From NCBI GenBank assembly GCA_045651325.1, contig JAZRSB010000021.1:10603-42602 (forward strand): a stretch of 32,000 bases of DNA, read 5' to 3'. The translations under genes and the position numbers were made by a program. Below are positions 2,382-27,239 of the stretch, piece by piece. The notes under the pieces are model-generated. The model was not told where the DNA came from, made no database searches, and saw only the letters and a program-made list of their open reading frames with translations. The first letter of the stretch is position 1. Every line of letters starts with the position of its first letter. Source of the DNA: Candidatus Spyradenecus sp. Its GTDB lineage: Bacteria > Verrucomicrobiota > Verrucomicrobiia > Opitutales > UBA953.

Positions 2382-4367
2382 TTAGCGGCAAGCGGCAACC
2401 AAATTGTCAACCGACATACCCATCGCTTCGAGCACGACATTGCCGGGAGCGGAGAAGCCGAAGCTGTCCGTGCCCAGAACCTTGCCGTTGAGTCCGACGT
2501 ATTTCCACCACATTGTCGAAATACCGGCTTCAATCGCGATGCGATTCGTGCAGGCGGCGGGAAGCACTTCTTCGCGGTATTCCGGAGCCTGCTTGTCGAA
2601 GATTTCCATCGACGGCATGGAGACGACACGCGTTCCGGCGCCGAGCTGTTCCGCTGCCGCAACCGCCAACTGCAATTCGCTGCCCGTCGCGATGATGATG
2701 CGTTCGAGCGCCGCCGTTTCTTTCACGGCAATATAAGCGCCCTTCAAGGTGCCCGCACGACGCGTCGCCGCCGGAATCATTTCCAGCGCGGGGACGTTCT
2801 GGCGGGAAAGGCAAAGCGCAACCGGACCGTCCTTGCGGGCAACGGCGTATGCATAAGCCGCAGCCGTTTCTTCCGAATCCCCCGGACGAATAACGTCGAG
2901 ATTGGGAATGCAACGCAACGACGAAACGAGTTCCACCGGCTGGTGCGTCGGACCGTCTTCACCGACGGCGACGGAATCGTGCGTCAGAACGTAGTAAACC
3001 GGGAGCTTCGCGAGTGCGGAGACGCGGACGGCACCGCGTGCGTAGTCGATGAAGGTCAGGAAGGTCGAGGCCATCGGCTTGAAGATGCCGTAATAGCCGA
3101 TACCGTTCGTGATTGCAGCCATCGCGTGTTCGCGAATGCCGTAGAAAATATTGCGTCCCGCCGGCGTTTCGACATCGAAGTCGCCGCCGTCCTTGATATA
3201 GGTTTTGACGGAGGAGAAGAGGTCTGCCGAACCGGCGAGCATGAGCGGGTTCTGCTTGGCGAGTGCATTGAGTGCCGCTTCGCCGGAAACGCGCGTGGCA
3301 TTGTTGTTGGCTCCGAATTCGGGGATGAGTTCAAGGAGCGCTTCGGCAGTCCCGTGGTCGCCGGCAACGCCCTTGTCGAGAAGGGCGGCGAGTTCCGGAT
3401 TTGCGGTCTGCCACGCGGCAAAGGTCTTTCCCCAAGCCTGATAAGCGTCTTCACGGCGTGCGGCAAGCGCAGCAAAGTATTCGCGTGTTTCCGGGGAGAC
3501 GTAGAAGCGTTCTTCCGGAAGGCCCCAACCCTTGCGCGCCGCGTCCGCGAACTTCGCGCCGCCTTCGCCGTGCGCCTTGGTCGTTCCCTCAACTTCGGCG
3601 ACGCCCTTACCGATGAGCGTCTTGCAAACGATGATTTTCGGGCGGCCGTTCTTGTGCGACTTCGCGTCTTCGTAAACGCGAATCAAATCCGCGATATTGT
3701 GCCCGTCTTCCAAAAGCCAGGCATCCCAACCGGCCGCCTGGAAACGGAGCATCGTATCTTCGCGCTGGGTTTTATCCGCCGGGGCGTCGAGCGTAATGTC
3801 GTTGGCGTCGTAGAAAAGAATCAGGTTGTCGAGGCCGAAACGCGCCGCAAAGGAAGCCGCTTCATAAGAGATGCCTTCCTGCAGGCAACCGTCTCCGCAG
3901 AGGCCGACGACGACGTGGTCAAAAATCTTGTGTTCTTCGGTATTGAACTTCGCGGCCGCCATCTTTTCGGCGAGAGCCATCCCGACAATATTGCCGATAC
4001 CCTGACCGAGCGGTCCCGTTGTTGCCTCGATACCGGGCGTATCGCCGAATTCGGGGTGACCGGGCGTGAGGCTGCCGCGCTTGCGGAAGGCCTTCAGGTC
4101 GTCCAACGAAATTGCAAAGCCCGCCAAATGCAACCACGCATAGCTGAACATGCTCCCGTGCCCGGCGGAGAGCACGAAACGGTCGCGATTGATCCATTTC
4201 GCATGCTTGGGAGCAACGTTCAGGCAACGGCCGAAGAGCGCCGCGCCGATTTCGGCAGCGCCGAGCGGAAGCCCCATGTGCCCGGACTTGCAGCCGGCAA
4301 TTGCGTCGATAGCCAAACCGCGGGCCTCATCGGCCGCGCGCGTCAATGCGTTAATTTCAGTGGTCAT
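2382..4367 (-). CDS. tkt: Transketolase
   Basis: ORF 2382..4523 trimmed to the ATG at 4367 (MTTEINALTRAADEARGLAIDAIAGCKSGHMGLPLGAAE...). Classic transketolase motifs are SGHMG, RDRFVLSAGHGS, GPLGQGI, GDGCLQEG, THDSVAVGEDGPTHQP. The 52-codon N-terminal extension in the track would overlap the tRNA-Gln gene and its terminator. Confidence 0.95.
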   Translation of the reverse strand: MTTEINALTRAADEARGLAIDAIAGCKSGHMGLPLGAAEIGAALFGRCLNVAPKHAKWINRDRFVLSAGHGSMFSYAWLHLAGFAISLDDLKAFRKRGSLTPGHPEFGDTPGIEATTGPLGQGIGNIVGMALAEKMAAAKFNTEEHKIFDHVVVGLCGDGCLQEGISYEAASFAARFGLDNLILFYDANDITLDAPADKTQREDTMLRFQAAGWDAWLLEDGHNIADLIRVYEDAKSHKNGRPKIIVCKTLIGKGVAEVEGTTKAHGEGGAKFADAARKGWGLPEERFYVSPETREYFAALAARREDAYQAWGKTFAAWQTANPELAALLDKGVAGDHGTAEALLELIPEFGANNNATRVSGEAALNALAKQNPLMLAGSADLFSSVKTYIKDGGDFDVETPAGRNIFYGIREHAMAAITNGIGYYGIFKPMASTFLTFIDYARGAVRVSALAKLPVYYVLTHDSVAVGEDGPTHQPVELVSSLRCIPNLDVIRPGDSEETAAAYAYAVARKDGPVALCLSRQNVPALEMIPAATRRAGTLKGAYIAVKETAALERIIIATGSELQLAVAAAEQLGAGTRVVSMPSMEIFDKQAPEYREEVLPAACTNRIAIEAGISTMWWKYVGLNGKVLGTDSFGFSAPGNVVLEAMGMSVDNLVAACR

Positions 4368-4389
4368 CTCGAATAAATTAAAACGTAAG

Positions 4390-4419
4390 TTTATACCGTT
4401 CCGGAGCCTTCCGTGCGAA
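4390..4419 (-). promoter_or_regulatory. Possible sigma70-type promoter for tkt
   Basis: Minus strand reads TTCGCA-18 nt-TATAAA (plus coordinates 4414..4419 and 4390..4395). It lies between the tRNA terminator and the tkt ATG. Hexamer match only. Confidence 0.25.
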
Positions 4420-4440
4420 CATTTTTTAACGGGAAAGCAC

Positions 4441-4467
4441 AAAAAAGTCCCGTACGGCGTACGGGAC
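4441..4467 (-). terminator. Rho-independent terminator of the tRNA-Thr/tRNA-Gln unit
   Basis: Minus strand reads GTCCCGTAC-GCC-GTACGGGAC (perfect 9-bp stem) followed by TTTTTT, 9 nt after the tRNA-Gln CCA end. Confidence 0.8.
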
Positions 4468-4475
4468 TTCAAAAG

Positions 4476-4550
4476 TGGTTGCCCGACCAGGATTCGAACC
4501 TGGACTAAATGAGTCAGAGTCATTGGTGCTGACCGTTACACTATCGGGCA
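4476..4550 (-). tRNA. tRNA-Gln (anticodon CUG), CCA encoded
   Basis: Hand-folded cloverleaf, 75 nt. Acceptor is TGCCCGA/TCGGGCA (U1-A72, typical of bacterial tRNA-Gln). Anticodon arm is AATGA-CTCTGAC-TCATT with anticodon CTG. T arm is CCAGG-TTCGAAT-CCTGG, followed by discriminator A and CCA. Confidence 0.9.
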
Positions 4551-4559
4551 ATGTTAAAC

Positions 4560-4634
4560 TGGAGCCAGAAGTCAGGATCGAACTGACGACCTATCGCTTA
4601 CAAGGCGATTGCACTACCACTGTGCTATTCTGGC
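4560..4634 (-). tRNA. tRNA-Thr (anticodon UGU), CCA encoded
   Basis: Hand-folded cloverleaf, 75 nt. Acceptor is GCCAGAA/TTCTGGC and D stem is GCAC/GTGC. Anticodon arm is ATCGC-CTTGTAA-GCGAT with anticodon TGT. T arm is GTCAG-TTCGATC-CTGAC, followed by discriminator T and CCA. Confidence 0.9.
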
Positions 4635-8303: not shown

Positions 8304-10343
8304 ATGAGCTACGCCATCTCACGCTTTAACACAATCCGCCGGAAAACCCGCGAAGTACTCGTCGGCGGCAACGTCGGCATCGGAGGCAACAATCCGGTCC
8401 GTATCCAGTCGATGACGACATCGAACACGCTCGACGTCGCCGCGACCGTCGCCCAGTGCATCCGTCTCGCGGAAGCCGGAAGCGAGCTGATTCGCATCAC
8501 GGCCCCGAGTGTCGCCGCGGCACAAGCGCTTAAACCGATCCGCGAGCAATTCCGTGCCGCCGGATTTTCACAGCCGCTCGTCGCCGACATTCACTTCCTG
8601 CCGGCAGCGGCGATGGAAGCCATCGAACACGTCGAAAAAGTCCGCATCAACCCGGGCAATTACGCGGACAAACGTTCCGCCGAAGCGCGCGACTATACGG
8701 ACAAAGAATACGCGGAAGAGCTTGAGCGCATCCACGCCGCCGTTGCTCCGCTAATCCGCCGCGCCAAAGAACTCGGCCGGACGCTGCGTATCGGCACGAA
8801 TCACGGCTCGCTGGCGGAACGCACGCTGCGGCGCTTCGGAGACACGCCCGCCGGCATGGTGGAAGCCGCCCTTGAATTCGTCCGCATTTGCGAAGCGGAA
8901 AACTTCCGCGATCTCGTGCTTTCGATGAAATCGTCGAACCCGAAGGTCATGATTGAAGCCTACCGCCTTGCCGTCGAAAAAATGAATGCCGAGCACATGG
9001 ACTATCCGATTCATCTCGGCGTCACCGAAGCCGGAGAAGGCGAAGACGCCCGCATCAAGTCGGCAATCGGAATCGGTTCCCTCCTCGTTGACGGCATCGG
9101 CGACACCATCCGTGTATCGCTCACCGAAGACCCGTGGCACGAAATTCCCGTTTGCCGCGAACTCCTCTCCCGCATCCGCCCGGAAAAGGCTCTGATTTCG
9201 GGAAGTATCGCCTCGAGCCCCGTCTGCGACCGCAGCGTTAATCCGCTCGACTATCACCGCCGCGACATTGTTCCGGTAACGCTCAACAAGCGATGCGACA
9301 TCTCCGTCGCAACGCCGCCGCGTGTTTTTGCCTTTGCGGATGTCGAAAAGCCGCTGGCCCAAATTATCAGCGATATTCGAGAAGCCAATTCCAAGACGGC
9401 CCCGATCGAAGGCATCGTGCTTCCCGTTGCCACGCAGTCCGACCTCGCCGCCGCCTGCGAAGTGCAGTGCGCCCTCGAAGACGAAGTCCCCGCATTTATT
9501 TTCGACCCGGTAAAAGACAGCGTCCCGGAGCTCTTTGAAAACTTCCGTCCCTCGCGCAAATCGGCCTCCTACATCCAGCGCCGATTCAATCCGGCAAATG
9601 CGGAAATCATTCCGTCCTGGGTCGAGGTCTGCCGCCAAAAAGGCGTCGGACTCGTCGTCGATTCCACGGCCGCCGCCCGCTCCGCCGTGCTTCCGGAATT
9701 GCGCGATTTCCCGCAGGAAAAACTCATTTTCACGACGAGCCGCAAATCTCCCGGCGTCCACGTCGTCGGCGCTTACCGCCAATTGGCTCAAGCTTTGGCC
9801 AATGTCGGCATTCGCTCGCCGATTTGGATTCGCGCCAGCGCCAAAAACACGATTCTTCCTTTCTCGAAAATTCCGACGGAATCTCCGGACGAAGCTCCGG
9901 CACTCGAGGCCGCCCTGCTCGCCGGGCCTCTGCTCTGCGACGGTATCGGCGACATTCTCTCGGTCGAAACCGCCGGCGATCTCAAGAAGAATCTTCAGCT
10001 CGCCTACGCCGTCCTCCAAGGCGCCCGCACCCGCCAAACGCGGACGGAATACATTGCCTGCCCGAGTTGCGGACGGACGCTTTACAACATCCAGGAAACC
10101 GTGCGTGAGATCAAGGCCCGCACCTCGCACCTCGACGGCGTGACCATCGGTATCATGGGTTGCATCGTGAACGGGCCGGGCGAAATGGCGGATGCCGATT
10201 TCGGCTACGTCGGCGGCGCTCCCGGGAAAATCAATCTCTACGTCCGCAAGGAATGCGTCGCCACCGGCATCCCGCAAGCCGAAGCCGTTGACCGACTTAT
10301 TGCTCTGATTAAGCAGCACGGCCGCTGGAAGGAACCGTCCTAA
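8304..10343 (+). CDS. ispG: 4-hydroxy-3-methylbut-2-enyl diphosphate synthase IspG (GcpE), long form with inserted central domain
   Basis: The N-terminal TIM barrel has RRKTREVLVGGNVGIGGNNPVRIQSMTTS, RITAPS, VADIHF, RINPGN, LRIGTNHGSL. The C-terminal 4Fe-4S domain has YIACPSCGRTLYNIQE...GCIVNGPGEMADADFGYVGG. About 270 extra residues lie between them, as in plant, chlamydial and Bacteroidota-type IspG. Confidence 0.93.
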   Translation: MSYAISRFNTIRRKTREVLVGGNVGIGGNNPVRIQSMTTSNTLDVAATVAQCIRLAEAGSELIRITAPSVAAAQALKPIREQFRAAGFSQPLVADIHFLPAAAMEAIEHVEKVRINPGNYADKRSAEARDYTDKEYAEELERIHAAVAPLIRRAKELGRTLRIGTNHGSLAERTLRRFGDTPAGMVEAALEFVRICEAENFRDLVLSMKSSNPKVMIEAYRLAVEKMNAEHMDYPIHLGVTEAGEGEDARIKSAIGIGSLLVDGIGDTIRVSLTEDPWHEIPVCRELLSRIRPEKALISGSIASSPVCDRSVNPLDYHRRDIVPVTLNKRCDISVATPPRVFAFADVEKPLAQIISDIREANSKTAPIEGIVLPVATQSDLAAACEVQCALEDEVPAFIFDPVKDSVPELFENFRPSRKSASYIQRRFNPANAEIIPSWVEVCRQKGVGLVVDSTAAARSAVLPELRDFPQEKLIFTTSRKSPGVHVVGAYRQLAQALANVGIRSPIWIRASAKNTILPFSKIPTESPDEAPALEAALLAGPLLCDGIGDILSVETAGDLKKNLQLAYAVLQGARTRQTRTEYIACPSCGRTLYNIQETVREIKARTSHLDGVTIGIMGCIVNGPGEMADADFGYVGGAPGKINLYVRKECVATGIPQAEAVDRLIALIKQHGRWKEPS

Positions 10344-10389
10344 TACGGCGACATCCGGTTTCAGCCCGCCTGCCGCCGAACGTCCGCAA

Positions 10390-10425
10390 TAAAAAAAGTC
10401 CTCCCTTTTACGGGAGGACTTTTTT
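10390..10425. terminator. Bidirectional rho-independent terminator between convergent ispG and GH84 genes
   Basis: AAAAAAAGTCCTCCC-TTTTAC-GGGAGGACTTTTTT. The stem is flanked by an A-run and a T-run, so it can terminate both strands. Confidence 0.8.
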
Positions 10426-10444
10426 GCGTATCGCAGAAGCGAAA

Positions 10445-12901
10445 CTATTTCGTACGAATGATTTCGAAGACCTTCACCGGCTTGTCTTTTTCCGGATTGA
10501 TCTGAATTGCACCGTCGGCATTCACCTTCACGCGTTCGGGGTGAGACGCAATGACGTGAACCTTGCGGAAGCCCTTTTCCGCGGGAATCGTCGTCGTGCT
10601 TGCAAAGCTGTAGCCGGAACGCGGATCGCCGTCGGTCATCGCCGCACGGGAACTGGCCTTAGCATCTTCGGGAATGTCGAATTTGAATTCGTTCAGTTTA
10701 ATGCTGATCGGCTTCCCGGAATTGTTGACGTAGCGGAAGAAGCGAATCTTCTGCTTTACATCCAACGAGTTCTGAAGCTCGGCGCCGTTATTGCGCGTAT
10801 TGAAGCGCGTCCACGTCGTTCCGTCCTTGGAGATTTCGACGTGACCGCTCTTGGACGCATCGGGGTTTTCAAGCTTCAGGTGGATGTAATTGCCGTAAAT
10901 GCCTTCCGGAAGTTCAATGCCGACATACTGCTTCGGGCCCAACGTAATCGGTTCGAACTTACGAATGCGCACGTACTTACCGTCGCGCTGTGCGACATCC
11001 TTCTTCATCTGGCTGACATCGGAAACCACCTTGTACAGGACTTCGCCGGAGCCCGCTGCAACGGCCTGTCCGCCCAACTGCTTGTGGAATTTACCCCACT
11101 CGGCGAGGAAGATTTCGTTGAGGAACGGCATAACGACGCGTTCGGCCACCTTGCTCGGATTGCGGTGCGGGGCGCCGATCTTGTCGGCATGGCCGGCCTG
11201 CGCTTCCATCGTGCGTTCACGCGAGTCGTAGAACTTCGCCGCCTTGGATGCAAATTCTTCGCGTTTTTTCGCATCCGTCGCCGTGATGAATTTCACCGTG
11301 GCTCCGCCGAATTTTCCGGTTTCGCCGAGAGCGCGCACCCAGAATTCGACTTCCTCCCAAAGCGCCGGATTATCCGACGGCACGAGCTTGATGAGCTCCT
11401 TGGAAGCCTTGTTCATTTTGGCAAATTCTTCCATCAGCTTCTTTTCGTTCGCCTTGGAAATTTTCCCGCTCTTTTTATACTCGTCCAACGCGGCGTCGAT
11501 GACGGGCTTAAACTCCACGGATTCTTCGCGGCGATAACCGTGGCCGTTCGGCCCCTGGTCGGAACTGTGGTTGGCGAGCGTCTGCATGGCACCCGCGTAT
11601 TGCGGGAAGAGCTGGCGAATCCCGGCCTTCCAGGACTTTTCGGAATTGAAATCGTCGATATTCCAGCAGTAGTCCGCAACGCCGAAGAGCGCGATTTTCG
11701 AAGCTTCCGGCTTGTCCATCGGATTGGAGACGAGGCCGGCGTACTTGCCCTTATTTTCCTTCGCCAAGCCGTAGGTGCGGCCGAGGAGAAGCGAGCTGGC
11801 GCAGTAATCAACGACCGGCCAGTTCCACCAGATGTACGGCGGGCGCTTGAGGCGCTTCGAGACCCAGTCCACGGTATCTTCCGTGATGTCGGTACAAACG
11901 GAATTGCCGGTCCACATCACGCGGATGCTCGGCTGAAGCTTGTTGCCGAGAATGTCCAGATAATCACCGCCGGACCATCCCTTGTTATATTGGCTCGGGC
12001 ACATGATGAGCGGAGCAACGTCGGTCTTTTTCGCGAGGAAATTATCGACCACGTAATTGCAAACTTCCGCCTGCAGGTCGGCGTCATGCTTGAAAATGTC
12101 GTCGAAAAACACGCCGAAGGAACGCACGCCGAGGCCGTACATCAGTTCGAATTTTTCGACGAGTTTCTTCATGTTTTCGCGGGCGTTCGTCGGATTGGTA
12201 ATAATGCTTCCGACGTGTGCCGCCCAAACGAAGTCCACGCAGTTGTCGTGCGCCGCCTTAATTTGCTTTTTCAGGAGTTCCGCCGTTTCTTTCGGGTACG
12301 GTTCCCACCAGCGCGCGTGGTGATACGGGTCGTCCTTCGGGCCGTAGATGTAGGTATTGATCTTGTATTTCCCGTAGAAATCGAATTGGCTGAAGCGGGC
12401 TTCCGGAGTCCAAGGACGTCCGTAATAGCCTTCGACGGAACCGCGGTAAGGCACGTCCGGCCAGTCCAAAACCGTCCCGCAGGCCAATTGTCCGTCGGCT
12501 TCAATCATTCGCGCCATCGTCTGAACGGCATAGAATTCCCCGGCGGAATCCAGAGCGCTGACAACGATTTCCTTGGGCGAAATTTTCAGAAAATAGGCCC
12601 CGGCACAGGGCGCGGTCTTTTCGGCTTTGAGCATTTTCTTCAGCGTCGCGCCGTCCTTTTCGACGCTCACGACGAGGCTTCCGGCCGGCATCAGTTTTTT
12701 CTCTTTGAAGACGGCGGTCAAGGGCGCGTACTTGCGGACCGTGCCGGTTGAAAGCATCTTGGCGTCGATGCTCTGCCCGCCGGCTTCCTTGACGAGTTGC
12801 GGAACCGGGTAAATATCTTTCGCGGAAGCACCGAACGCAAACGGGACGGCAAACGCGGAAAGAGAAAGTGCCAAAAATAAAGAGAGTGTCGGGGATTTCA
12901 T
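10445..12901 (-). CDS. Secreted GH84 beta-N-acetylglucosaminidase (O-GlcNAcase/NagJ-like) with a C-terminal discoidin (F5/8 type C, CBM32-like) domain
   Basis: Signal peptide is MKSPTLSLFLALSLSAFAVPFAFGA. An N-terminal GH20b-like domain is present. GH84 catalytic signatures are YRGSVEGYYGRPW, KINTYIYGPKDDPYH and the catalytic Asp pair in GVFFDDI. The C-terminal beta-sandwich is ...HLKLENPD...VEISKDGTTWTRF...RFFRYVN. Confidence 0.9.
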   Translation of the reverse strand: MKSPTLSLFLALSLSAFAVPFAFGASAKDIYPVPQLVKEAGGQSIDAKMLSTGTVRKYAPLTAVFKEKKLMPAGSLVVSVEKDGATLKKMLKAEKTAPCAGAYFLKISPKEIVVSALDSAGEFYAVQTMARMIEADGQLACGTVLDWPDVPYRGSVEGYYGRPWTPEARFSQFDFYGKYKINTYIYGPKDDPYHHARWWEPYPKETAELLKKQIKAAHDNCVDFVWAAHVGSIITNPTNARENMKKLVEKFELMYGLGVRSFGVFFDDIFKHDADLQAEVCNYVVDNFLAKKTDVAPLIMCPSQYNKGWSGGDYLDILGNKLQPSIRVMWTGNSVCTDITEDTVDWVSKRLKRPPYIWWNWPVVDYCASSLLLGRTYGLAKENKGKYAGLVSNPMDKPEASKIALFGVADYCWNIDDFNSEKSWKAGIRQLFPQYAGAMQTLANHSSDQGPNGHGYRREESVEFKPVIDAALDEYKKSGKISKANEKKLMEEFAKMNKASKELIKLVPSDNPALWEEVEFWVRALGETGKFGGATVKFITATDAKKREEFASKAAKFYDSRERTMEAQAGHADKIGAPHRNPSKVAERVVMPFLNEIFLAEWGKFHKQLGGQAVAAGSGEVLYKVVSDVSQMKKDVAQRDGKYVRIRKFEPITLGPKQYVGIELPEGIYGNYIHLKLENPDASKSGHVEISKDGTTWTRFNTRNNGAELQNSLDVKQKIRFFRYVNNSGKPISIKLNEFKFDIPEDAKASSRAAMTDGDPRSGYSFASTTTIPAEKGFRKVHVIASHPERVKVNADGAIQINPEKDKPVKVFEIIRTK

Positions 12902-17067: not shown

Positions 17068-17112
17068 AAAAAAACAAAAAAAACGTTCCCGCAAACACGG
17101 GAACGTTTTTTT
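17068..17112. terminator. Bidirectional rho-independent terminator between the convergent tsaB-like gene and the paralog pair
   Basis: AAAAAAACAAAAAAAACGTTCCCG-CAAACA-CGGGAACGTTTTTTT. An 11-bp stem is flanked by an A-run and a T-run. Confidence 0.8.
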
Positions 17113-17128
17113 ATCAACGGCTCAATCC

Positions 17129-17863
17129 TTATTGAGCGGCAGCTTCCGAAGCCTTCTTCTGAGCGGCGAGGAATTCTTCCTCGTTCACCTTCGTGTAGAG
17201 CTTCGATTCGACAATTTCCATGAGGTAGTCGCGAGCCAGAGAGAAGCCGTACTGCTTAATCATCAGATCATTGTTCTTGATCAGGTTTTCTTCCGCCGTC
17301 TTGACGTTTTCCAGTGCCTTCGCCTTTTCTTCGCTTTCCGGCATCTTCTTGATGGATTCGTTGAGCGCAACGAGCTGCTGGCGCAGATTGTGCATCACCT
17401 GAACATTGTGGCGGAACTGCGTGTTCGCGTCCGCACCCGGAATTTCGGCGATAAGGCGGAACTTGTCGTCGCCCTTAACCAGCAGCTGTTCGGCCGGAAC
17501 GGAAGCATCGTCCTTAGCGGCGGCGTATTCCGCGTCCGTGAGTTTGAGGAAGATGCGCGTCTTGAGGATCTGGTGGAGGTAGTCGCGAGCCAAGGAATAG
17601 CCGTAAGCGCGGGCCATTGCCTGATTGTTTTCTTCGAGCTTCTTGACGATTTCCTTGCTCTTTTCGAGAGCCGCCGCGCGTTCCGCATCCGTCAACGCCG
17701 TCTTTGCGCGCTGATTCAGTTCAACAACCGCCTGACGCTGGCGTTGAACGACCTGGACGTTTTGAACAAACTGCGTATTCGCTTCAACGGTATTAATCGT
17801 AGAAACGTGGATGAATTTCTGACCGTTCTGCTCGATAAAGTCGAGTGCTGTATTTTCTGCCAT
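17129..17863 (-). CDS. Hypothetical protein, internally duplicated (2 x ~110 aa) coiled-coil module, paralog B, with no signal peptide
   Basis: It starts MAENTALDFIEQNGQKFIHVSTINTVEAN..., exactly where the mature part of paralog A begins. The two modules share NVQV, YG(Y/F)SLARDYL and (T/N)(D/E)(A/E)E(Y/F). I recognise no family. There is a weak resemblance to Skp/OmpH-type chaperones, which is speculative. Confidence 0.6.
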   Translation of the reverse strand: MAENTALDFIEQNGQKFIHVSTINTVEANTQFVQNVQVVQRQRQAVVELNQRAKTALTDAERAAALEKSKEIVKKLEENNQAMARAYGYSLARDYLHQILKTRIFLKLTDAEYAAAKDDASVPAEQLLVKGDDKFRLIAEIPGADANTQFRHNVQVMHNLRQQLVALNESIKKMPESEEKAKALENVKTAEENLIKNNDLMIKQYGFSLARDYLMEIVESKLYTKVNEEEFLAAQKKASEAAAQ

Positions 17864-17893
17864 GATGGGTTTGTACTTAAGGGTGAATAAAAA

Positions 17894-18754
17894 TTATTTT
17901 GCGGGTTCCGTGGTGAGCGTTTCGTCTTCAAGCTCCTTTTGAGCTTCGGCGCGCAGGAATTCTTCTTCCGTCACCTTCGTATAAAGTTTCGAAACGGCGA
18001 TTTCCATGAGGTAGTCACGAGCGATAGAGTAGCCGTAGAACTTCACCATCTGCTCATTGGCCTCGAGGAATTTCTTCTCGTTCTCGGCGAACTGGGCTTC
18101 CGCCTTCTGCTTTTCTTCGCCTTCGGGCATTTTCTTGAGCACTTCGGCAGCCTGGCGCAGGTGATTACGCATCGCCTGCATCTTCTGGACATTCGTGCGG
18201 AATTCCAAATTGCCCTGCTCATTCGAAATTACGGAAACGCGACGGTACTTGTCATCGCCCTTAACCAAAAAGTCTTCGCCGACTTTGAGGTCCTTTCCCT
18301 CTTCCTTCATCTTCGCATACTCCTCTTCCGTGAGCTTCAGGTAGATGTAGGTTTCCACGGGAACATGGATATAATCGCGGGAAAGCGAATAGCCGTAGCT
18401 ATTCGCCATCGTCTGATCGCCCTTATTGAGCTCTTCCGTCAATTCCTTAATCTTTTCGTCCGTGGCCTTGCGTTCTTCTTCCGTGAAGGCCATTTTACGA
18501 TGTTCGTTGAGCTTAATCAGGGTTTGGCGCAACTGAGAGATAATCTGAACGTTACGTGCGAATTCCTGATTGGCCTCGACCGTGGAAAGAGTCGAGACAT
18601 GGAGAAACTTCAAACCGTTCTGTTCGATGTAATCCAACTTTGTTTCGACGGCACCGTCGTTACCGGAATTTGCGGGAGCCGGATCTTCGGCATAAACAAC
18701 GGCGGAAAGAGCAAAAGCCGTAGCGAGGACGGATAGGATATTTTTAATTTTCAT
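17894..18754 (-). CDS. Hypothetical secreted protein, internally duplicated module, paralog A (with signal peptide)
   Basis: Signal peptide is MKIKNILSVLATAFALSAVVYA|EDP. Two modules are each alignable to those of 17129..17863 (A1~B1, A2~B2): LDYIEQNGLKFLHVSTLSTVEAN..YGYSLSRDYI and DFLVKGDDKYRRVSVIS..YGYSIARDYLMEI..KLYTKVTEEEF. Confidence 0.65.
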   Translation of the reverse strand: MKIKNILSVLATAFALSAVVYAEDPAPANSGNDGAVETKLDYIEQNGLKFLHVSTLSTVEANQEFARNVQIISQLRQTLIKLNEHRKMAFTEEERKATDEKIKELTEELNKGDQTMANSYGYSLSRDYIHVPVETYIYLKLTEEEYAKMKEEGKDLKVGEDFLVKGDDKYRRVSVISNEQGNLEFRTNVQKMQAMRNHLRQAAEVLKKMPEGEEKQKAEAQFAENEKKFLEANEQMVKFYGYSIARDYLMEIAVSKLYTKVTEEEFLRAEAQKELEDETLTTEPAK

Positions 18755-18787
18755 AAGCTTGTAATCGAATGATAAAACTCGCGTTCA

Positions 18788-18816
18788 ACAATACGCTTAA
18801 AAAGTATTCTGTTCAA
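18788..18816 (-). promoter_or_regulatory. Probable sigma70-type promoter for the paralog pair
   Basis: Minus strand reads TTGAAC (18816..18811), a 17-nt spacer, then TATTGT (18793..18788). It lies about 34 nt upstream of the ATG at 18754 and immediately after the secretin terminator. Confidence 0.4.
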
Positions 18817-18839
18817 GATATTTTGCGAAATTTAAAGAT

Positions 18840-18875
18840 AAAAGCAGGGCGAGTCCGAAGACCCGCCCTGCTTTT
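18840..18875 (-). terminator. Rho-independent terminator after the secretin gene
   Basis: Minus strand reads AAAAGCAGGGCGGGTC-TTCG-GACTCGCCCTGCTTTT. This is a long GC-rich stem with one mismatch, a TTCG loop and a trailing T-run, 14 nt after the secretin stop. Confidence 0.75.
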
Positions 18876-18888
18876 GCAAACCTCTCTC

Positions 18889-21849
18889 TTATTGGAGGCC
18901 CGTGTTTTCGTCCGCAACCGGTACCGTGTCGTAATCGCGGTAAATCGGTCCCGAAGAAATGAAGAGGCTCGGATTCGAGTAGGTCGATCCCGTTTGGACG
19001 CCCTTGAAGAGACCGTCTTCCGTTCCTCCGCCGCGAGCCATGAGGTTGGCCGTAACGAAGATGAGGAGATTCTTCTTCGTGATGGACTTGCCCGTCGAAC
19101 GGAAGGCAGAGCCGATGAGCGGCAAATCGCCGAGAACCGGAACCTTATCGTTGACCGTGCGGATTTCTTCGCGCGTCAAGCCACCGATAACAATCGTACC
19201 GCCGTCGTAAACTTCCACCGTCGTGGAAACCTGACGGAGATTGAAGACCGGCTGGAAGAAGCCTGCCGGCGTCGTAACAACGATACCGCCCGCAATTGCA
19301 ACGGCCGTTCCGCCGTATTCGATGAAGCCTTCGAATTCCTTGATTTCCGGAGAAAGCTCAAGCGTAATCGACTTTTCCGTGTTGTTCACACGCGGAAGGA
19401 CGCGCATCTGAATACCGACTTCGGTCGCTTCTTCGTCGAACTGCGGCGTACCCGGCGTAATACCGACGGAAGCATTTCCGTAGCCGCTGTTGTTATTGTT
19501 ATTGTCGTTGTTGTAGCTGTTGCTGCCGCTGACGGAAATTTCCATGTCGTCATAGGACTGCGGCCAACGGAGGAGCTGGACGATCTTAATCGTTGCTTCC
19601 ATTTCCGATTGAACCGTGAGGCTCGGAGCCGCCATGAGGTCCGTTCCGTCGCGTGCGCTGAGCGCGTTCAGGATGAGACGGAGGTCGTAGTTGCCGACCG
19701 TTCCGATAACCCCCGTAAAGGTCGGGAGCGTGTCGATCCCGTAGTTGGGCTGACGCGTCACCTGCGGCGGTTTCTGTGCGAATTCCTTTTCCGAGGCTTC
19801 CTTACCCGGGTGGAAGACACCGTCTTCATCCGTGTATTCGTCCGTCGGCGGCGTGTAAATGAGCGTCTTGGAGTCTTCGGAAATCGTGGCGTGCGCACCG
19901 GCAACCGTACGATTGTTCGTCGTTGCACGCGTGAACATGTCATTGCCTTCACCGCGCGTCAGAGCCCAGTTCGTAACGACCTGGTTCAAGACCGTGCTGT
20001 TGACTTCGATAAACTTCGCTTCGATGTTGACCTGCTTCGTTTCCGCCGTGCTCAAGCTGCGGAGGATGTTACGGATACGGTCCATACCCTTGCGGTCCTG
20101 CGTAACGATGAGAAGATTGGAGGTCGCATCGTAAACGAGCGAGCGGTCACCTTCCCAGTTAACACCGGCGCGGGCCAAGAAGTTCTTGATGCCGATTTCT
20201 TCAGCGTTTTCTTCGGCGACTTCTTCGCCGGAGACGCCGAAGGGGCTGCTGGCACCCGCCGAGGAGGTTTTCTTGCCGGCCATGCGGGCAACCACCTTCG
20301 GGGAAACCGTGAATTCTTCCTGGTCAAGACCTGCGGAACCGATATTCGGCGTAACTTCGACGATGCCGTCCTTGTTCACGTCGTAGCGGTAGCCGACCGT
20401 GCTGAGCATGGTCTTCAACACCTTGTCCATCGGCTGGCTCTTCATCTGCAGATTGACGAGCGGCGGATTCTTATTTTCCGGGTCGATGAGGACGATGTCG
20501 ATACCGCGTCCGACCGGGTCATTAATCACCGAGAGTTCGGAAATCGTGTCGATTGCACGCTGGAGCGGAGCGTCACGCAACGTGACGGCAACGTTGATGC
20601 GCGACATCTTGGCTTCGACCGGATTCGTCTTTTCTTCCGAATCGTCAACGGCGGCGACAGCCGTAAAGGGCATCGCGAGTTTCCACTTTTCGCGGACGTC
20701 CGCAAACATCGTTTCGCGGGTCAGCTCGTGGTTGTATTCGCCCGAATTTGCGAGAATCTTACGGATGCGGATCTGCATCGCCTTGGCTTCCGCATTGTCC
20801 GGCATGTAGAGCAAGGCCTTCTGATAGCTTTCGAGAGCGCTCAGGTAGTCGCCGTACTGGTACTGGGCCTTCCCGCGGAGGAGCGCTTCCTTGCATTCCT
20901 GCTGGGCGCGAATGGCGGTCGGGTTCAGGGTTTCCGGGTTTTGGGCATCGGCCGTGCTACGCCATTCCTGATAGAATGCGGCAAGCTGCTTGTAAATTTT
21001 GTGTTCCTTGCCGAGGAGTTCTTCCACCATCTTCATGTAGGAAGCGGCTTCAACGGCGGAGCGGCGTTCAACCATGTCGAAGAAGTAGCCGGAGTAAACG
21101 AGTGCGCGTTCTTCGTCAATTTCCTTGGAAACTTCGGCGGTCGAGGAAACGTTCGGGAGGAGGAGCTTCGCTTCGTCCAAAGACTTAATCGCTTCGGCAA
21201 GCATGTGGCGGGAGCGTTCTTCCTTCGCACGGGAGAGGGAGCGGCGCGATGCCAACGTGCTTTCGCGGATGGCTTCGCGTTCGGCAGCCGTCATTTCTTC
21301 GGCGAGTTGAGCCGGGTCGAGCTTCGTCATCGCCAGCTGAGCCGCTTGACGGGCGACCGCAATCTTGTCGAAATACGGGCGGGATGCCGGGGTCTTCGGC
21401 AATGCGCTCTGGATGTCGGCCAAGAGGCGCAGTGCGCGTTCCGGATCGGTCGGAGCGAGGAATTCGGCTTGCATGATGGCCGCTTCGGCTTCGCGGTAAA
21501 TCGCATTGCGCTGCTGAATGATGCGTTCGAATTCGCTCTTCGGCGCACCTTCGGTTCCCGCCGTCGCCGCCGACTTAATGTCACGGAGTGCGAGTTCCGC
21601 TTCCGCGAGACGTCCCTTAGCCTGCTCGTTGTTCGGATCAAGCTTCAGGAAGGCGCGATACTTTTCGATTGCGACATCGAACTTCTGTTCGGACGCAGCG
21701 CTTTCCGCCTCGAGGTAAAGCTTGGCTTTGAGTTGATCGTTATCCTCACCTTCTGCAAACGCGCTCGGAGACGCGACAACCGCGCCTGCGAGGGCGGTCG
21801 TGATGAAAGCGGAGGAAATGACTTTTTGGATGCGCAACTGGTTTTTCAT
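18889..21849 (-). CDS. Outer-membrane secretin (PilQ/GspD superfamily) fused to a ~400-aa N-terminal TPR/helical domain; Amuc_1098-type by position
   Basis: Signal peptide is ...AGAVVASPSAFA|EGE. Helical TPR-like repeats include KYRAFLKLDPNNEQAKGRL and YLSALESYQKALLYMPDNAEAK. An N0/STN-like domain is INVAVTLRDAPLQRAIDTISELS. The canonical secretin core is VSTTVEVYDGGTIVIGGLTREEIRTVNDKVPVLGDLPLIGSAFRSTGKSITKKNLLIFVTANLM. Confidence 0.9.
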   Translation of the reverse strand: MKNQLRIQKVISSAFITTALAGAVVASPSAFAEGEDNDQLKAKLYLEAESAASEQKFDVAIEKYRAFLKLDPNNEQAKGRLAEAELALRDIKSAATAGTEGAPKSEFERIIQQRNAIYREAEAAIMQAEFLAPTDPERALRLLADIQSALPKTPASRPYFDKIAVARQAAQLAMTKLDPAQLAEEMTAAEREAIRESTLASRRSLSRAKEERSRHMLAEAIKSLDEAKLLLPNVSSTAEVSKEIDEERALVYSGYFFDMVERRSAVEAASYMKMVEELLGKEHKIYKQLAAFYQEWRSTADAQNPETLNPTAIRAQQECKEALLRGKAQYQYGDYLSALESYQKALLYMPDNAEAKAMQIRIRKILANSGEYNHELTRETMFADVREKWKLAMPFTAVAAVDDSEEKTNPVEAKMSRINVAVTLRDAPLQRAIDTISELSVINDPVGRGIDIVLIDPENKNPPLVNLQMKSQPMDKVLKTMLSTVGYRYDVNKDGIVEVTPNIGSAGLDQEEFTVSPKVVARMAGKKTSSAGASSPFGVSGEEVAEENAEEIGIKNFLARAGVNWEGDRSLVYDATSNLLIVTQDRKGMDRIRNILRSLSTAETKQVNIEAKFIEVNSTVLNQVVTNWALTRGEGNDMFTRATTNNRTVAGAHATISEDSKTLIYTPPTDEYTDEDGVFHPGKEASEKEFAQKPPQVTRQPNYGIDTLPTFTGVIGTVGNYDLRLILNALSARDGTDLMAAPSLTVQSEMEATIKIVQLLRWPQSYDDMEISVSGSNSYNNDNNNNNSGYGNASVGITPGTPQFDEEATEVGIQMRVLPRVNNTEKSITLELSPEIKEFEGFIEYGGTAVAIAGGIVVTTPAGFFQPVFNLRQVSTTVEVYDGGTIVIGGLTREEIRTVNDKVPVLGDLPLIGSAFRSTGKSITKKNLLIFVTANLMARGGGTEDGLFKGVQTGSTYSNPSLFISSGPIYRDYDTVPVADENTGLQ

Positions 21850-21912
21850 GCGGGGCCAATTCGAGTTAAGTGGTTTATCAGAGCTGGGGTCTGGTTGAAA
21901 TTTCGGGTTAAA

Positions 21913-22923
21913 TTATCGTGCGAGGTCTAAAACAACTTGGCGAACCTTGGGGCGCTTCGATTTGCCGTTAGACTCCGATTGTTTGGTTATTGTTGCCTGT
22001 TGAGCGGAAATGTCAACAATTTTGACAAAATAAGTTGCACTTCCCGCTTGGAACGAAGGCTCATTTCCGAGAGAAACCCACGGTTCGGCGGAAGATTCGC
22101 GCGTCATGAGCTCGATTTCGGGCTTTTCCGCTCCGGCGACGAAGGTTTCGCGGTAGCGCCACTCGCGGGAGGAGAACTCGTCGCGGAAAACCGCTTCGAC
22201 GCGGGAGGCGTCGCGGACGAATTCCTCAAGAGCGCGGAACTCTTTATCCTTGTCTTCGTGGTCAACAAAGGTCGCCATATACTTTGTATAGAACGTACCG
22301 TCACCGCTTTCGCTTTCGCCGCGAACGATTTTGAAATCCTTCAGAGCGACGTTTTGTCCGGCGATTTCCGCGGGGCGGCGCGGAGTCAAGGAAATAATCG
22401 TACGTCCTTCGAGTTCTTCCTTGCTCATTTTGACGCCCGCGATACGGCGGAAGTCCACGGAAGCTTCACCGCCCTTGGGATCGGCGAATTTCACGAAGGT
22501 CTGGAAAGCGGTTCCCTTGCCGTCGGCGTTTTTAACGCGGCGCGGCGGCACATCGGACGAGCAGGCAGCGACGCGCAGGCGGGAAAGCGGATTTTCCATC
22601 GACACGAGGCTGATTCCGAAAGGTTCTTCCGGCGGGACGGGCAATTCCTTGGCGATGTATTTCTTTTCCCCGGAGAGCCAGGTCGTTTCCGGCGTGGAGA
22701 ACAGGTCGTAGTTCCATCCCGTTTCCATGTCCAGACTCGGCGAGTTCCATTTTTCGGGAGCGGCGGCAAAAGACTTGTCATCCTTCCATGCGGCGAAGGC
22801 GGAGCCCGAGGGCTTCAGGGAGCCCCCCGATTTGGCTTCCGGCTTCATTCCGAGATAAACGCCGAAACCGGCAAGGCAGGCGACCAAACCCAAAATAAAA
22901 ACAATCTTATCGTAATGCTTCAT
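21913..22923 (-). CDS. Membrane-anchored periplasmic protein in the PilP position (Amuc_1099-type by position); function unknown
   Basis: The N-terminal TM anchor is MKHYDKIVFILGLVACLAGFGVYLG, followed by a soluble beta-rich region. It sits 63 nt upstream of the secretin and 12 nt downstream of the preceding gene. I recognise no motif. Confidence 0.55.
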   Translation of the reverse strand: MKHYDKIVFILGLVACLAGFGVYLGMKPEAKSGGSLKPSGSAFAAWKDDKSFAAAPEKWNSPSLDMETGWNYDLFSTPETTWLSGEKKYIAKELPVPPEEPFGISLVSMENPLSRLRVAACSSDVPPRRVKNADGKGTAFQTFVKFADPKGGEASVDFRRIAGVKMSKEELEGRTIISLTPRRPAEIAGQNVALKDFKIVRGESESGDGTFYTKYMATFVDHEDKDKEFRALEEFVRDASRVEAVFRDEFSSREWRYRETFVAGAEKPEIELMTRESSAEPWVSLGNEPSFQAGSATYFVKIVDISAQQATITKQSESNGKSKRPKVRQVVLDLAR

Positions 22924-22935
22924 TGTGAAAACTTT

Positions 22936-24048
22936 CTATTCGGATTTTTGAGTCTCTTCCTTTTCTTCCTTCTTCTGTCCCTTCGGCGTGATGTATTCCA
23001 AGGTGACGGTAAACAGTTCCGGAACATTTTCCACGATAACCCGGCGGGCGGGCACACGCGGAGCGCTCGCCTGCTCAACGGCGGTAACGGCCGTACCGGC
23101 TCCGAAGAGGTCAAACGGATTGACGGAGGCCGGGGCTGCGACAGCCGGGCCCGACGCGGGAGCATTTTTCGGCGGAAGCATGTCCGGCGTAGCGCGCGAC
23201 GCCTCAATGTCACGCACATAAATCGGATACGATTCGAGGCGTTGCATGAACTTACGCAACACGCCGGTGTCGCCGACAAAAGCGATGCGGAATGCGAGCG
23301 CGTCAACAGCCCGGTCGCGGCGGAGCGACTGGTAGCTTACTTCCTTCGACGCGGCATCCGAAAGTTTCACAAAGCCGGTATCGCCGGATTCGGCAATCGC
23401 ATCCACGACGATTTCGTCGCGTTGCAGCGAGCGGCGTTGCACCTGCGAAAGTTCGAGGCCTTCGCGCGCCATCGCCATCAGCTTCAGATAGGTCGTATCC
23501 GAAGCGGCAAGCACGTTAGCGGCACGCAATTCGCGCTCGTTGTCCTCACGGGCTTCGACAAGCGTCTTCAGCAATGCGCCCGTAACGGCGGCTTCAAGAT
23601 CCAATTTTTCCAGTTTATCCGCCGGAGCGCTTTCGTTTGCGACGAGGTAACGGGAGAAACCGAATCCGCGCGTTGCCGGCGCCAATTCCACATGCTGCTC
23701 TTCGCAGAGGCGCGTCCAATCGCGGTTACGCTCCGTCAGCAGAGACATAAACTGGGTGGCATCGCCCTTGAAGAATGTTTCGAGACGCTTGGGCTGCAGA
23801 AGCGTTCCCACGCGCACCTTCATCGAGTCCTTCAGAGCTTCAATCGAGGCCGTCCCCTGCTCGAGGTTTTCTTCGGAAAGCGCGAGCGTCTTGCGCTTCA
23901 CCAGCTTGTCGAGTTTCTTTTTATTTTTCTCGATCGCCGCTTCTTTCTTTCCGTTGTCGAGCATGGTCGAAACCGAAACGGCGAGTCCGCCGACAAACAC
24001 GATTCCGCAGAGAGCCAAAATCAGGATTAGAGGTAAATTTTTCTTCAT
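22936..24048 (-). CDS. Membrane-anchored coiled-coil protein in the PilO position; architecture resembles the Akkermansia Amuc_1100 family
   Basis: It has an N-terminal TM anchor (MKKNLPLILILALCGIVFVGGLAV), a coiled coil and an alpha/beta domain (AFRIAFVGDTGVLRKFMQRLESYPIYVRDIE). These are followed by an Ala/Pro-rich linker and a short terminal beta segment plus a Lys/Glu tail. This is the same domain order I recall for Amuc_1100. Its start lies 3 nt after the PilM/N gene stop. Confidence 0.6.
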   Translation of the reverse strand: MKKNLPLILILALCGIVFVGGLAVSVSTMLDNGKKEAAIEKNKKKLDKLVKRKTLALSEENLEQGTASIEALKDSMKVRVGTLLQPKRLETFFKGDATQFMSLLTERNRDWTRLCEEQHVELAPATRGFGFSRYLVANESAPADKLEKLDLEAAVTGALLKTLVEAREDNERELRAANVLAASDTTYLKLMAMAREGLELSQVQRRSLQRDEIVVDAIAESGDTGFVKLSDAASKEVSYQSLRRDRAVDALAFRIAFVGDTGVLRKFMQRLESYPIYVRDIEASRATPDMLPPKNAPASGPAVAAPASVNPFDLFGAGTAVTAVEQASAPRVPARRVIVENVPELFTVTLEYITPKGQKKEEKEETQKSE

Positions 24049-24051
24049 GGC

Positions 24052-25797
24052 TTAAAGTCCTTTGTCGGATTTGATACGGAGCGTAAGTGTCAGGGTCGGC
24101 AGATTCGGCTTGGAGAAGTCCGGCTTGTCCTTGATTTTCACGCTTTTATCAACGAATTCAGATGCCTTCAGCGATTCGAGAATCAGGTTGCGGCGCGCTT
24201 CGAAAACGCTGGAATTGTGTTCCGGATTATCGGCATCGACTTCCGGAATCAGCATCGCAAATTTGATTTCGACATCGCAAACGACGCCGGCGGGATTTTC
24301 TCCGTCCGCTTTTTTGAGCGAGCGGCGTACAGCCAACGAATCGAGCCAGATGTGGCGATCCGACGAGAAAATCGTTTCGCCCTCTTCGCCGGTAGCGGTG
24401 CGCGTCTGCAGGCGCGTCAGGCAGGCCTGTCCGTCCGCCATAAAGTCGTTCCAGCGGAAGCGCTTGTCGAGCACGGAGAACACTTCGTCCAGATAAGCCT
24501 TCATCTTCCGGCTCTGTTCGTCCAAATTGGTGAGTTGTTCTTCGCGGTCTTCGAGAACCCGAATCTGCTTCGCTTGGGCCGCACGCATATTTTCGAGCGT
24601 CGCGCCGACATCCGAGAGGTGCATCCAAACCGGCCACGGAGCAAGCGCCAGGAAGACGCCGGCAAGCGCCAGGAAAGGCATCTTCTTCTTGAAATCAAGT
24701 TCCTTGGCGATTTCCGGCGGAAGCAGATTGACGCCTTCGATGCCCGGCATAACGAGCGCGGAGGCTTCGCCGATTACTTCCTGCAACTCAAAGCGTTCGT
24801 TGAAGACCTTGTCCGTGTCCACGCCGGAAGCGCAGGAAAGAAGCGGGGTCACGTCGAGCACTTCGACGGGAACGCGCTGCAGTTCCGACAGTTTCTTCGC
24901 CATGTCCGGCAGGAGCGAACCGCGGCCGGAAATGAAAATTTTCTTCGGACCGACCCCGCCGTTCGCGCGCTTGAACGCGATGAGACGGCGCGTAATGTCT
25001 TGGCTGAGGCGACGGATGAACGAATCCGCAGCCGCAAGAATCGTCGCAGGCACGGGGTCGTCGTACGAGAAGCGGGCCGTTTCCGTAAAATACGCGATTT
25101 TTTTCTGCTCGGCCGCCTGGAATGCAACCCCGGTCGCTTCGGCAAGTTTTTGCGTCACGTAATTGCCGCCGAGACCGATATTGTTGATATCGAAACCGTT
25201 TTCGGTGACAAAGGTGAGATTGGTCGTGTGGGCGCCGACATTGACGATGAGCGCCGGGCCGACGTCTTCCCCGCCCTGCGAGAGCAGGTAACGGTAAGCC
25301 TGAACGTCGAGATTCGTTGCCGGCTGAATCGTGTCGGGAACAATCTTGGCTTCCTTGATGAGCAGGTTTGTAAAGCGTACGATTTCGGTCCGCTTCAAAG
25401 CGAAAATAACGACGCTTTCTTCAACGCCGTCGGAAGCGATAACCTGGCTTCCCCAAACGAGTTCTTCCAGCGGGAAGGGGAAGTTGCTCCGGGCTTCAAA
25501 CGCAATAACGCCTTCACGCTTCGAGGCTTCCACCTGCGGAACACGGACATTGCGGGTCAGCAGGAGCTGGCCGGGGGCAATGACCACGATTTCGCCCTTC
25601 GGCTTCATCGTCGAGAAGATATTGCGCAACGCATTTGTCGCCGCAACCGGCCATTCCTCTTTTTCCGTGTAGTTGTAAACAAGATTTTCGACGACGAGCT
25701 TTTCAAGCACCAGAGACCCCGCATCCGCAGAAAATACGGAAACGGAGACCTGCGTCGTCCCGCAGTTAATTATAGTTTTTGTCGCATTACTGCCCAT
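24052..25797 (-). CDS. PilM-like actin-fold ATPase fused to a PilN-like TM/periplasmic segment (Amuc_1101-type by position)
   Basis: Residues 1-355 form the ASKHA/PilM pattern: IINCGTTQVSVSVF, LIVNVGAHTTNLTFV, IGLGGNYVTQKLAE, IFISGRGSLLPDMAKKLSE. Next come the PilN signature VNLLPPEI, a TM helix (MPFLALAGVFLALAPWPVWM), a coiled coil and a C-terminal alpha/beta domain. Confidence 0.8.
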   Translation of the reverse strand: MGSNATKTIINCGTTQVSVSVFSADAGSLVLEKLVVENLVYNYTEKEEWPVAATNALRNIFSTMKPKGEIVVIAPGQLLLTRNVRVPQVEASKREGVIAFEARSNFPFPLEELVWGSQVIASDGVEESVVIFALKRTEIVRFTNLLIKEAKIVPDTIQPATNLDVQAYRYLLSQGGEDVGPALIVNVGAHTTNLTFVTENGFDINNIGLGGNYVTQKLAEATGVAFQAAEQKKIAYFTETARFSYDDPVPATILAAADSFIRRLSQDITRRLIAFKRANGGVGPKKIFISGRGSLLPDMAKKLSELQRVPVEVLDVTPLLSCASGVDTDKVFNERFELQEVIGEASALVMPGIEGVNLLPPEIAKELDFKKKMPFLALAGVFLALAPWPVWMHLSDVGATLENMRAAQAKQIRVLEDREEQLTNLDEQSRKMKAYLDEVFSVLDKRFRWNDFMADGQACLTRLQTRTATGEEGETIFSSDRHIWLDSLAVRRSLKKADGENPAGVVCDVEIKFAMLIPEVDADNPEHNSSVFEARRNLILESLKASEFVDKSVKIKDKPDFSKPNLPTLTLTLRIKSDKGL

Positions 25798-25829
25798 AGG
25801 ACGTATCGAGAAGAGTTTAAGTAAAGGAA

Positions 25830-26591: not shown

Positions 26592-26728
26592 AAAGGGCAA
26601 GATTTAGGGGTTGGAGAGAAAACTGATTGGCATAAATTAAAGGCTTTAGAAGCGCCGTTTCAATCACAAAAACGGAGGAAACCGGTAGGAAAGTTCGGAC
26701 GCCGAAGTCGCTTTACGAAGCGCGGAAA

Positions 26729-27235: not shown

Positions 27236-27239
27236 AGTG

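Follow-up and report, generated by a model that had tools for sequence, protein, structure and literature searches.

Several described systems bind or assist other proteins during folding and offer points of comparison for the genes described here. The periplasmic chaperone Skp (OmpH family) has, in order, one or more beta strands, a long helical hairpin, further beta strands and a short carboxyl-terminal helix. Prefoldin is the "jellyfish" holdase of archaea and eukaryotes, and its alpha subunits contribute two beta hairpins. Folding factors often come as pairs of paralogues, one periplasmic and one cytoplasmic, such as PpiA and PpiB of Escherichia coli. A stretch of 32,000 nucleotides from Candidatus Spyradenecus sp. 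(assembly GCA_045651325.1, contig JAZRSB010000021.1, positions 10,603 to 42,602 of the forward strand), called here the window, carries two tandem genes, A and B. Their products appear to be an exported and a signal-less version of one two-module protein that belongs to no described family. The pair was first singled out in an inspection of the DNA made without database searches (the sequence-only reading), whose claims are taken up below with the results that bear on them.

Both genes lie on the minus strand. The open reading frame (ORF) of gene A (17894..18754) codes for 286 amino acids, comprising a signal peptide, a linker of ~15 amino acids and two modules. That of gene B (17129..17863) codes for 244 amino acids, with two modules and no signal peptide. 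BLASTP comparison of the protein halves, combined with the structural elements of the AlphaFold model, places module A1 at about residues 38-157 (18284..18643, minus) and module A2 at about residues 158-286 (17897..18283, minus). In B, the comparison of halves and the family alignment delimit B1 at residues 1-122 (17498..17863, minus) and B2 at residues 123-244 (17132..17497, minus), the latter also with the help of an AlphaFold model. The two proteins align with 51% identity over 233 residues (E 6e-71), residue 38 of A corresponding to residue 5 of B, and the module measures ~115 amino acids. The paralogy from end to end and the four copies of one module, both claimed beforehand, are thus borne out. 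When halves are compared, A1 with B1 and A2 with B2 share 52% identity each, against 29-30% between A1 and A2 (E 1e-14 to 1e-17) and 39-42% between B1 and B2 (E 6e-26). Since the halves resemble their counterparts in the other gene more than each other, the duplication inside the gene is older than the duplication of the gene, in the order that had been proposed. The (L/F)(H/R)VS island listed among the conserved stretches is found in three of the four modules, while B2 has FRLIAE instead.

Protein A starts with a Sec type I signal peptide, residues 1-22 (18689..18754, minus), of sequence MKIKNILSVLATAFALSAVVYA, assigned from its sequence, its hydrophobicity and the orthologues. Cleavage is read directly before the dipeptide ED. 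The hydrophobic maximum over 15 amino acids reaches 2.41 on the Kyte-Doolittle scale, the signal contains no cysteine, and it is kept in all A-type orthologues. Residues 1-37 of A have a predicted local distance difference test (pLDDT) score below 50 in the AlphaFold model. Protein B has no hydrophobic segment, its maximum being 0.40, and the TAA stop codon of A is found in frame 30 nucleotides (nt) 5' of the ATG of B, so that no longer amino terminus of B is possible. The clean Sec signal ascribed to A and the impossibility of a signal peptide on B are both upheld by these data. The statement that B starts where mature A starts needs to be amended: the first residues of B correspond to the beginning of the folded domain of A, which in A is preceded by ~15 extra residues of linker behind the cleavage site. 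It is likely that A is exported and that B stays in the cytoplasm because its signal was lost.

The split between an exported and a non-exported copy, also claimed from the window, is kept in 12 paired loci. In all 12 (related loci are designated below by L numbers) the upstream gene codes for a protein with a signal peptide, and the product of the downstream gene starts with M(A/S)(E/D)..LD(F/Y)IEQNG and lacks one. The gap between the genes ranges from 25 to 63 nt and the two are out of frame in 5 of the 12 loci; a common frame with a gap of 30 nt is found in the window, L010-L012 and L001. Orthologues of A are 42-92% identical. With ratios of non-synonymous to synonymous substitution rates (dN/dS) of 0.05-0.07 in A and 0.01-0.02 in B, both genes are functional and under strong purifying selection. 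B evolves 5-10 times slower than A: in L011 the orthologue of B is 99% identical and that of A ~90%, and in L005 the figures are 90% and 59%. Single-copy relatives that bear a signal are 56-58% identical to B and 43-47% identical to A. In a neighbour-joining tree the B clade has a bootstrap value of 25% and the A clade of 2%, values too low to tell whether all A-type genes go back to one duplication.

A second tandem duplication, in locus L002, arose independently. Here the signal-less copy comes first (9089-9844) and is followed by a copy with a lipoprotein signal (10001-10981; family member P0025), an order reversed relative to A and B of the window. The two copies are 77% identical and are paired in 94 of 100 bootstraps, inside the clade of single-copy genes. 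Loss of the signal after tandem duplication therefore occurred at least 2 times, and this recurrence suggests selection for a cytoplasmic copy rather than gene decay.

Two further observations concern the DNA of the pair. The GC content between positions 17001 and 19000 of the window is 0.49-0.52, against 0.55-0.64 across most other parts. The Lys/Glu-rich coding sequence of A and B accounts for this dip, and horizontal transfer is not needed as its explanation. Plus-strand ORFs at 17132-17890, 17939-18736 and 18769-21930 (252, 265 and 1053 amino acids) lie opposite B, A and the secretin gene that precedes A. They are shadow ORFs of Lys/Glu-rich minus-strand genes; homologues and dN/dS back the minus-strand genes only.

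AlphaFold2 modelled A with a pLDDT of 80.8 and a predicted template modelling score (pTM) of 0.68; residues 121-244 of B, approximately module B2, reached a pLDDT of 94 when modelled alone. The predicted module opens with a beta-hairpin. Next come two helices of ~30 residues each, which follow one another across a tight turn and so form an antiparallel helical hairpin of ~60 residues; an extended segment and then a short helix complete the module. In A1 these elements are predicted at residues 42-56 (extended), 59-88 and 92-120 (helices), 128-141 (extended) and 143-152 (helix); in A2 they are predicted at residues 162-176, 179-208, 213-240, 248-261 and 263-281, in the same order. The extended segment following the helical hairpin is called as a strand of 14 residues when two modules are modelled together, and as coil when one is modelled alone. 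That this carboxyl-terminal beta segment becomes a strand only when two modules are present suggests that a beta core is formed between modules or between subunits. It is the one hint of an arrangement like that of Skp, a homotrimer with a barrel made up of beta strands from all subunits. The near-invariant residues of the family (F, N-V-Q, N, M, Y-G, R, Y and E) are found together where the helical hairpin has its base and in the stretch directly behind it. Mean conservation is 0.62-0.64 at the base and 0.46 in the distal hairpin, where ~35% of the residues are charged. The base would thus be the conserved packing core through which modules or subunits associate, with the helical hairpins projecting from it as arms.

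The statement of the sequence-only reading that the proteins belong to no recognised family agrees with all searches made. Scans against Pfam, NCBIfam, PADLOC and PHROGs gave no significant match for A or B, and neither A alone nor the module profile matched a sequence of the PDB. A word-indexed search of 5.8 billion proteins returned only 28 relatives, all unnamed or called "hypothetical", the named ones from metagenome-assembled genomes (MAGs) of Opitutae. A profile search of 1.84 billion cluster representatives returned 261 sequences at E<1e-3, 165 of them at E<1e-10. Most family members have 145-175 amino acids and consist of one module behind a Sec or lipoprotein signal. Other forms are P0036 and P0059, with two modules and no signal, P0081 and P0116, which are membrane-anchored and have several modules, and P0160, in which the module is fused to InlB B-repeat/TSP3 surface-protein domains, the sole domain fusion among the long relatives scanned. 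According to MAG titles, the two-module forms come from Opitutales, Opitutia and Puniceicoccales and from Ca. Spyradenecus and Ca. Spyradosoma, of animal guts.

In the family, helix 1 opens with the motif (A/S)Nx(E/Q)Fx(R/x)NVQ, and helix 2 is followed by the motif MxxxYG(F/Y)S(L/I)xR(D/N)Y and then by (V/L)(T/N/S)xEE. When the modules A1, A2, B1 and B2 are aligned with 42 single-module proteins, F, M, Y, Y and E are invariant, and conservation of N, N, G and R reaches 90% or more. Pfam gave coiled-coil noise only, first for 10 members and later for 46. Nearly all members are named "hypothetical protein"; the JGI labels "IS30 family transposase" and "FlaG/YvyC family", found once each, are evidently products of automatic annotation. 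A FlaG identity, to which that label and weak hits in 4 of the 46 members (best E 0.027) pointed, was judged spurious and rejected. Taken together, the searches indicate a new, unannotated family of gut Opitutales and other uncultured bacteria, which merits an entry as a domain of unknown function.

Some taxonomic labels attached to the family call for comment. MAG contigs titled Enterobacteriaceae, Bacteroidaceae and Sphaerochaetaceae (L017, L019, L022 and L026) carry it; the most likely reason is that Opitutales contigs were mis-binned or mislabelled. Split hits obtained with the L026 copy suggest a frameshift or an assembly error. The NCBI taxonomy lists Ca. Spyradenecus under Lentisphaeraceae, while L010, whose A is 92% identical, is titled Opitutales and the remaining relatives are all Opitutia; the NCBI placement looks inconsistent.

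The history of the genes and their proposed function are as follows. The unit from which the family is built is the module of ~115 amino acids, present once in most members and preceded there by a Sec or lipoprotein signal. Gut Opitutales first acquired a duplication of this module inside the gene, giving exported proteins of ~290 amino acids, and then a tandem duplication of the gene, the upstream copy A keeping its signal and the downstream copy B losing it and so remaining in the cytoplasm. A and B would oligomerise through the conserved core of beta elements and helix bases, leaving the charged helical arms to project and to bind unfolded or partly folded proteins in the manner of a holdase or adaptor, comparable to Skp and prefoldin. 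The periplasm would be the place of action of A, and the cytoplasm that of B. The anatomy and the evolutionary history are well supported, while the holdase function is a best guess drawn from the predicted topology, the conservation pattern and the general precedent of folding-factor pairs in the two compartments. An oligomeric holdase-like binder on both sides of the inner membrane, with the anatomy included, is given a probability of roughly 0.45. A more elaborate form of it supposes a new type of body-and-arms holdase, unrelated in sequence to Skp or prefoldin, whose recurrent pairing of an exported with a signal-less copy serves as a relay between the two compartments, B holding envelope or secretory proteins ahead of Sec export like SecB and A receiving them afterwards; it must be considered a long shot.

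If A and B are chaperone-like binders, they would be uncharacterised players in envelope biogenesis of Opitutales and other bacteria of the PVC group, which are common but poorly studied gut organisms. They would also provide a clean natural example of how a periplasmic protein is re-targeted to the cytoplasm once its gene is duplicated in tandem and one copy loses the signal peptide, an event that took place at least 2 times.

Several results weigh against the holdase proposal. No significant homology that would indicate chaperone activity was found in sequence, profile or structure searches. In a Foldseek search of the PDB with a single module, the Skp chains 1sg2_A and 1u2m_C take ranks 1-2 (probability 0.97, rmsd 1.1 over 57 columns), with an E value of only ~1, and the alignment covers just the helical hairpin, a very common motif. 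With whole A, Skp falls to ranks 24 and 47. The best E values of Foldseek were 0.17-1, giving no significant match, in searches of the PDB with the two models and of BFVD with the model of one module. The Skp/OmpH profile PF03938 has no match at E<=1 in A, in B, in 10 single-module relatives or in the 46 members of the family alignment. Comparison by hhalign of the family alignment with an alignment of enterobacterial Skp, with or without one OmpH from the PDB alignments, gave a probability of at most 4%, against a Skp profile that is narrow (Neff 1.4-2.0), the Skp-seeded search having returned only enterobacterial sequences at least 79% identical. The isoelectric points of mature A (5.0) and B (5.9) are acidic, while that of Skp (9.5) is basic. 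The neighbourhoods of relatives give no hint at function. It is also odd that B, the copy that changed compartment, is the one nearest to the ancestral sequence.

The alternative that survives best is that the family has a role other than that of a chaperone: it might be a structural or spacer coiled coil in the envelope, a stress protein or a regulator, B being a cytoplasmic variant with a related binding role. The conserved polar motif (NVQ...QxQRQ and YG(F/Y)S(L/I)xR(D/N)Y) would fit a specific ligand or interface better than promiscuous binding of clients, and the acidic nature of the proteins, the membrane-anchored multi-module relatives and the fusion to surface-protein domains in P0160 fit such a role as well. 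The proteins have, however, no clusters of cysteine or histidine for metal or redox chemistry, and neither informative neighbours nor domain matches point to a structural or regulatory task. This explanation is unlikely on balance, though it deserves to be kept in mind beside the holdase proposal.

A second alternative is that the module and Skp/OmpH are true homologues that have diverged strongly, and that an ordinary periplasmic chaperone gene was duplicated. The sequence-only reading had put forward a likeness to Skp/OmpH. In its favour are the order of structural elements, the first places in Foldseek and the relatives, most of which are exported proteins of ~150 amino acids. The relationship itself found no backing in HMMER or hhalign: the searches listed above apply here too, the family profile found no Skp/OmpH chain among PDB sequences, and the charge of A and B is opposite to that of Skp. 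Neither bamA nor lpxD, the typical neighbours of skp, was seen in the ~30 loci inspected. A and most relatives have a signal peptide; B and several other members have none. Descent from Skp is therefore doubtful. Membership in the OmpH family is not shown, and that A and B might work like Skp is a hypothesis from topology alone.

The third alternative takes its origin from the gene upstream of A. It codes for a secretin of 986 amino acids with amino-terminal tetratricopeptide (TPR) repeats (18889..21849, minus), in agreement with what had been read from the DNA, its match to PF00263 having an E value of 3.3e-30. The secretin gene is preceded by genes for p336, a 370-amino acid Amuc_1100-like protein, PilM (24052-25797), p256, an LptE-like protein (26729-27385) and a BamD/YfiO-like TPR protein (27240-28601), which form an envelope-biogenesis run on the minus strand (21913-28601). 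The orthologue of the 370-amino acid protein in L006 has a weak match to PF28028 (Amuc_1100). The genome is Opitutales-like, but its Amuc_1100/PilQ cluster is of the Akkermansia type. In the paper on the outer-membrane proteome of Akkermansia, the genes beside Amuc_1098 go unmentioned.

According to this alternative, A, B or both are a partner, a substrate or an assembly factor of the secretin or of a type IV pilus-like machine, a role that had been suggested for them from their position. In four lineages, namely the clade of the window (window, L010 and L011), L012, L005 and L006/7, the pair comes immediately after the PilM/Amuc_1100-like/p336/secretin cluster, and across these secretin-adjacent loci the identity of A to that of the window goes from 92% down to 46%. 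Surrounding genes are related to the envelope (BamD-like, LptE-like, LpxR and DsbD). The further suggestion to ask whether the genes always follow Amuc_1098-type secretins has a negative answer, since the pair is found elsewhere in at least 7 lineages. It follows tsaD in L001, adjoins a divergently transcribed yicC-like gene in L003/4 and follows the gene of a small DMT-family transporter in L008/9/23. L013/14 have no secretin upstream, and p219-LpxR is found downstream in L014; in L015, L024 and L002 the pair occurs in other contexts. None of the single-copy two-module genes (L016-L022, L025 and L027) adjoins a secretin, and neither does any of the single-module genes (L028-L034). Among all these loci the nearest case is L025, with a secretin fragment ~9.5 kb away on the opposite strand. 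The single-module relatives stand alone beside genes for GMC oxidoreductases, TetR or ammonium transporters. In addition, neither A nor B has a lipoprotein signal of the pilotin type.

Transcription signals also separate the pair from the secretin. Between the secretin gene and A lies a terminator hairpin (18840..18875, minus), GC-rich, with a stem of 16 bp and a UUCG loop, followed by AUCUUUAAAUUU. Its z score is -4.3 and none of 200 shuffled sequences folded equally well, which confirms the hairpin located there by inspection. Equivalent hairpins with U-tracts follow the secretin gene in L005, L012 and plausibly L006. Upstream of A, the promoter-like sequence TTGAAC-17 nt-TATTGT (18788..18816, minus) was identified by reading the sequence. 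It agrees with the consensus at 8 of 12 positions, below the threshold of the consensus scan, which did not report it. The term "good promoter" is too generous for such a match, but a comparable element is kept in related loci: a CTTGAA(T/C)/CTTGACG box, a spacer of 17-18 nt and a T/A-rich hexamer resembling a -10 element recur 5' of A-type genes whichever gene is the upstream neighbour. The box is found ~60-75 nt before the ATG in L001, L003, L005, L008, L012-L015 and L024. The single-copy genes of L016, L017, L019, L020, L022 and L025 have CTCTTGTCTTTT at a similar distance instead. The box of the A-type genes and CTCTTGTCTTTT may be lineage-specific promoter or operator motifs. After B, a hairpin scan found a terminator-like hairpin with a T-run at the end of the A-B unit (17077..17112, minus), and no RNA element of Rfam was detected close to the A and B genes. 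A and B would thus constitute a bicistronic unit with its own promoter-like box and a terminator at each end, in line with the transcription apart from the secretin that had been surmised.

Because the gene context is not conserved and a terminator and a promoter-like box intervene, the adjacency reads as a lineage-specific gene order and not as functional coupling. A working partnership with the secretin is improbable, and the position downstream of it most probably has no mechanistic meaning. Members of the family are not to be annotated as part of an Amuc_1100/secretin pilus-like cluster merely because they adjoin it in some genomes.

The weakest alternative, in which the B gene is decaying or wrongly called and ribosomes read through the TAA codon to make an A-B fusion as the real product, can draw on the in-frame, 30-nt arrangement noted above and on the three- and four-module proteins found elsewhere in the family, but the low dN/dS of B, its near-identity in L011 and its conserved signal-less amino terminus leave it next to no chance, and a fusion by readthrough or frameshift was rejected on the varying frame and spacing of the paired loci.

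Elsewhere in the window, two tRNA genes are present on the minus strand at 4479-4550 and 4563-4634 (Rfam RF00005, 64 and 71 bits). The first overlaps the mechanically called ORF 2382..4523, which codes for a transketolase. As Pfam matches this ORF only from residue 62 onwards, translation probably starts further downstream.

Among known systems, accessory proteins of secretins, such as pilotins and PilP-type proteins, recall A and B by the location of the pair beside a secretin in four lineages. They differ in that A and B have no lipoprotein signal and show no similarity to PilP, PilO or PilN in Pfam and NCBIfam. PpiA and PpiB, like A and B, are an exported and a cytoplasmic copy within one family; however, their genes are not adjacent in tandem and they belong to well-characterised enzyme families. 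The prefoldin architecture, a beta core with projecting coiled-coil arms, resembles that predicted for A and B. Prefoldin is moreover cytoplasmic like B, and the two hairpins of its alpha subunit recall a chain with two modules. A and B have no Pfam or sequence match to it, and the topology differs: in prefoldin the amino- and carboxyl-terminal helices pair with the beta hairpin between them, while in the modules of A and B the helices are consecutive and the beta elements flank them. With Skp the likeness extends to the predicted order of elements, to the size of the single-module relatives, which are exported proteins of ~150 amino acids, about as large as Skp, and to the combination of a conserved base with variable charged arms. 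The helical hairpin measures ~60 residues in A and B and ~90 in Skp, and A and B further depart from Skp by their two modules per chain and by the conserved paralogue that has no signal peptide.

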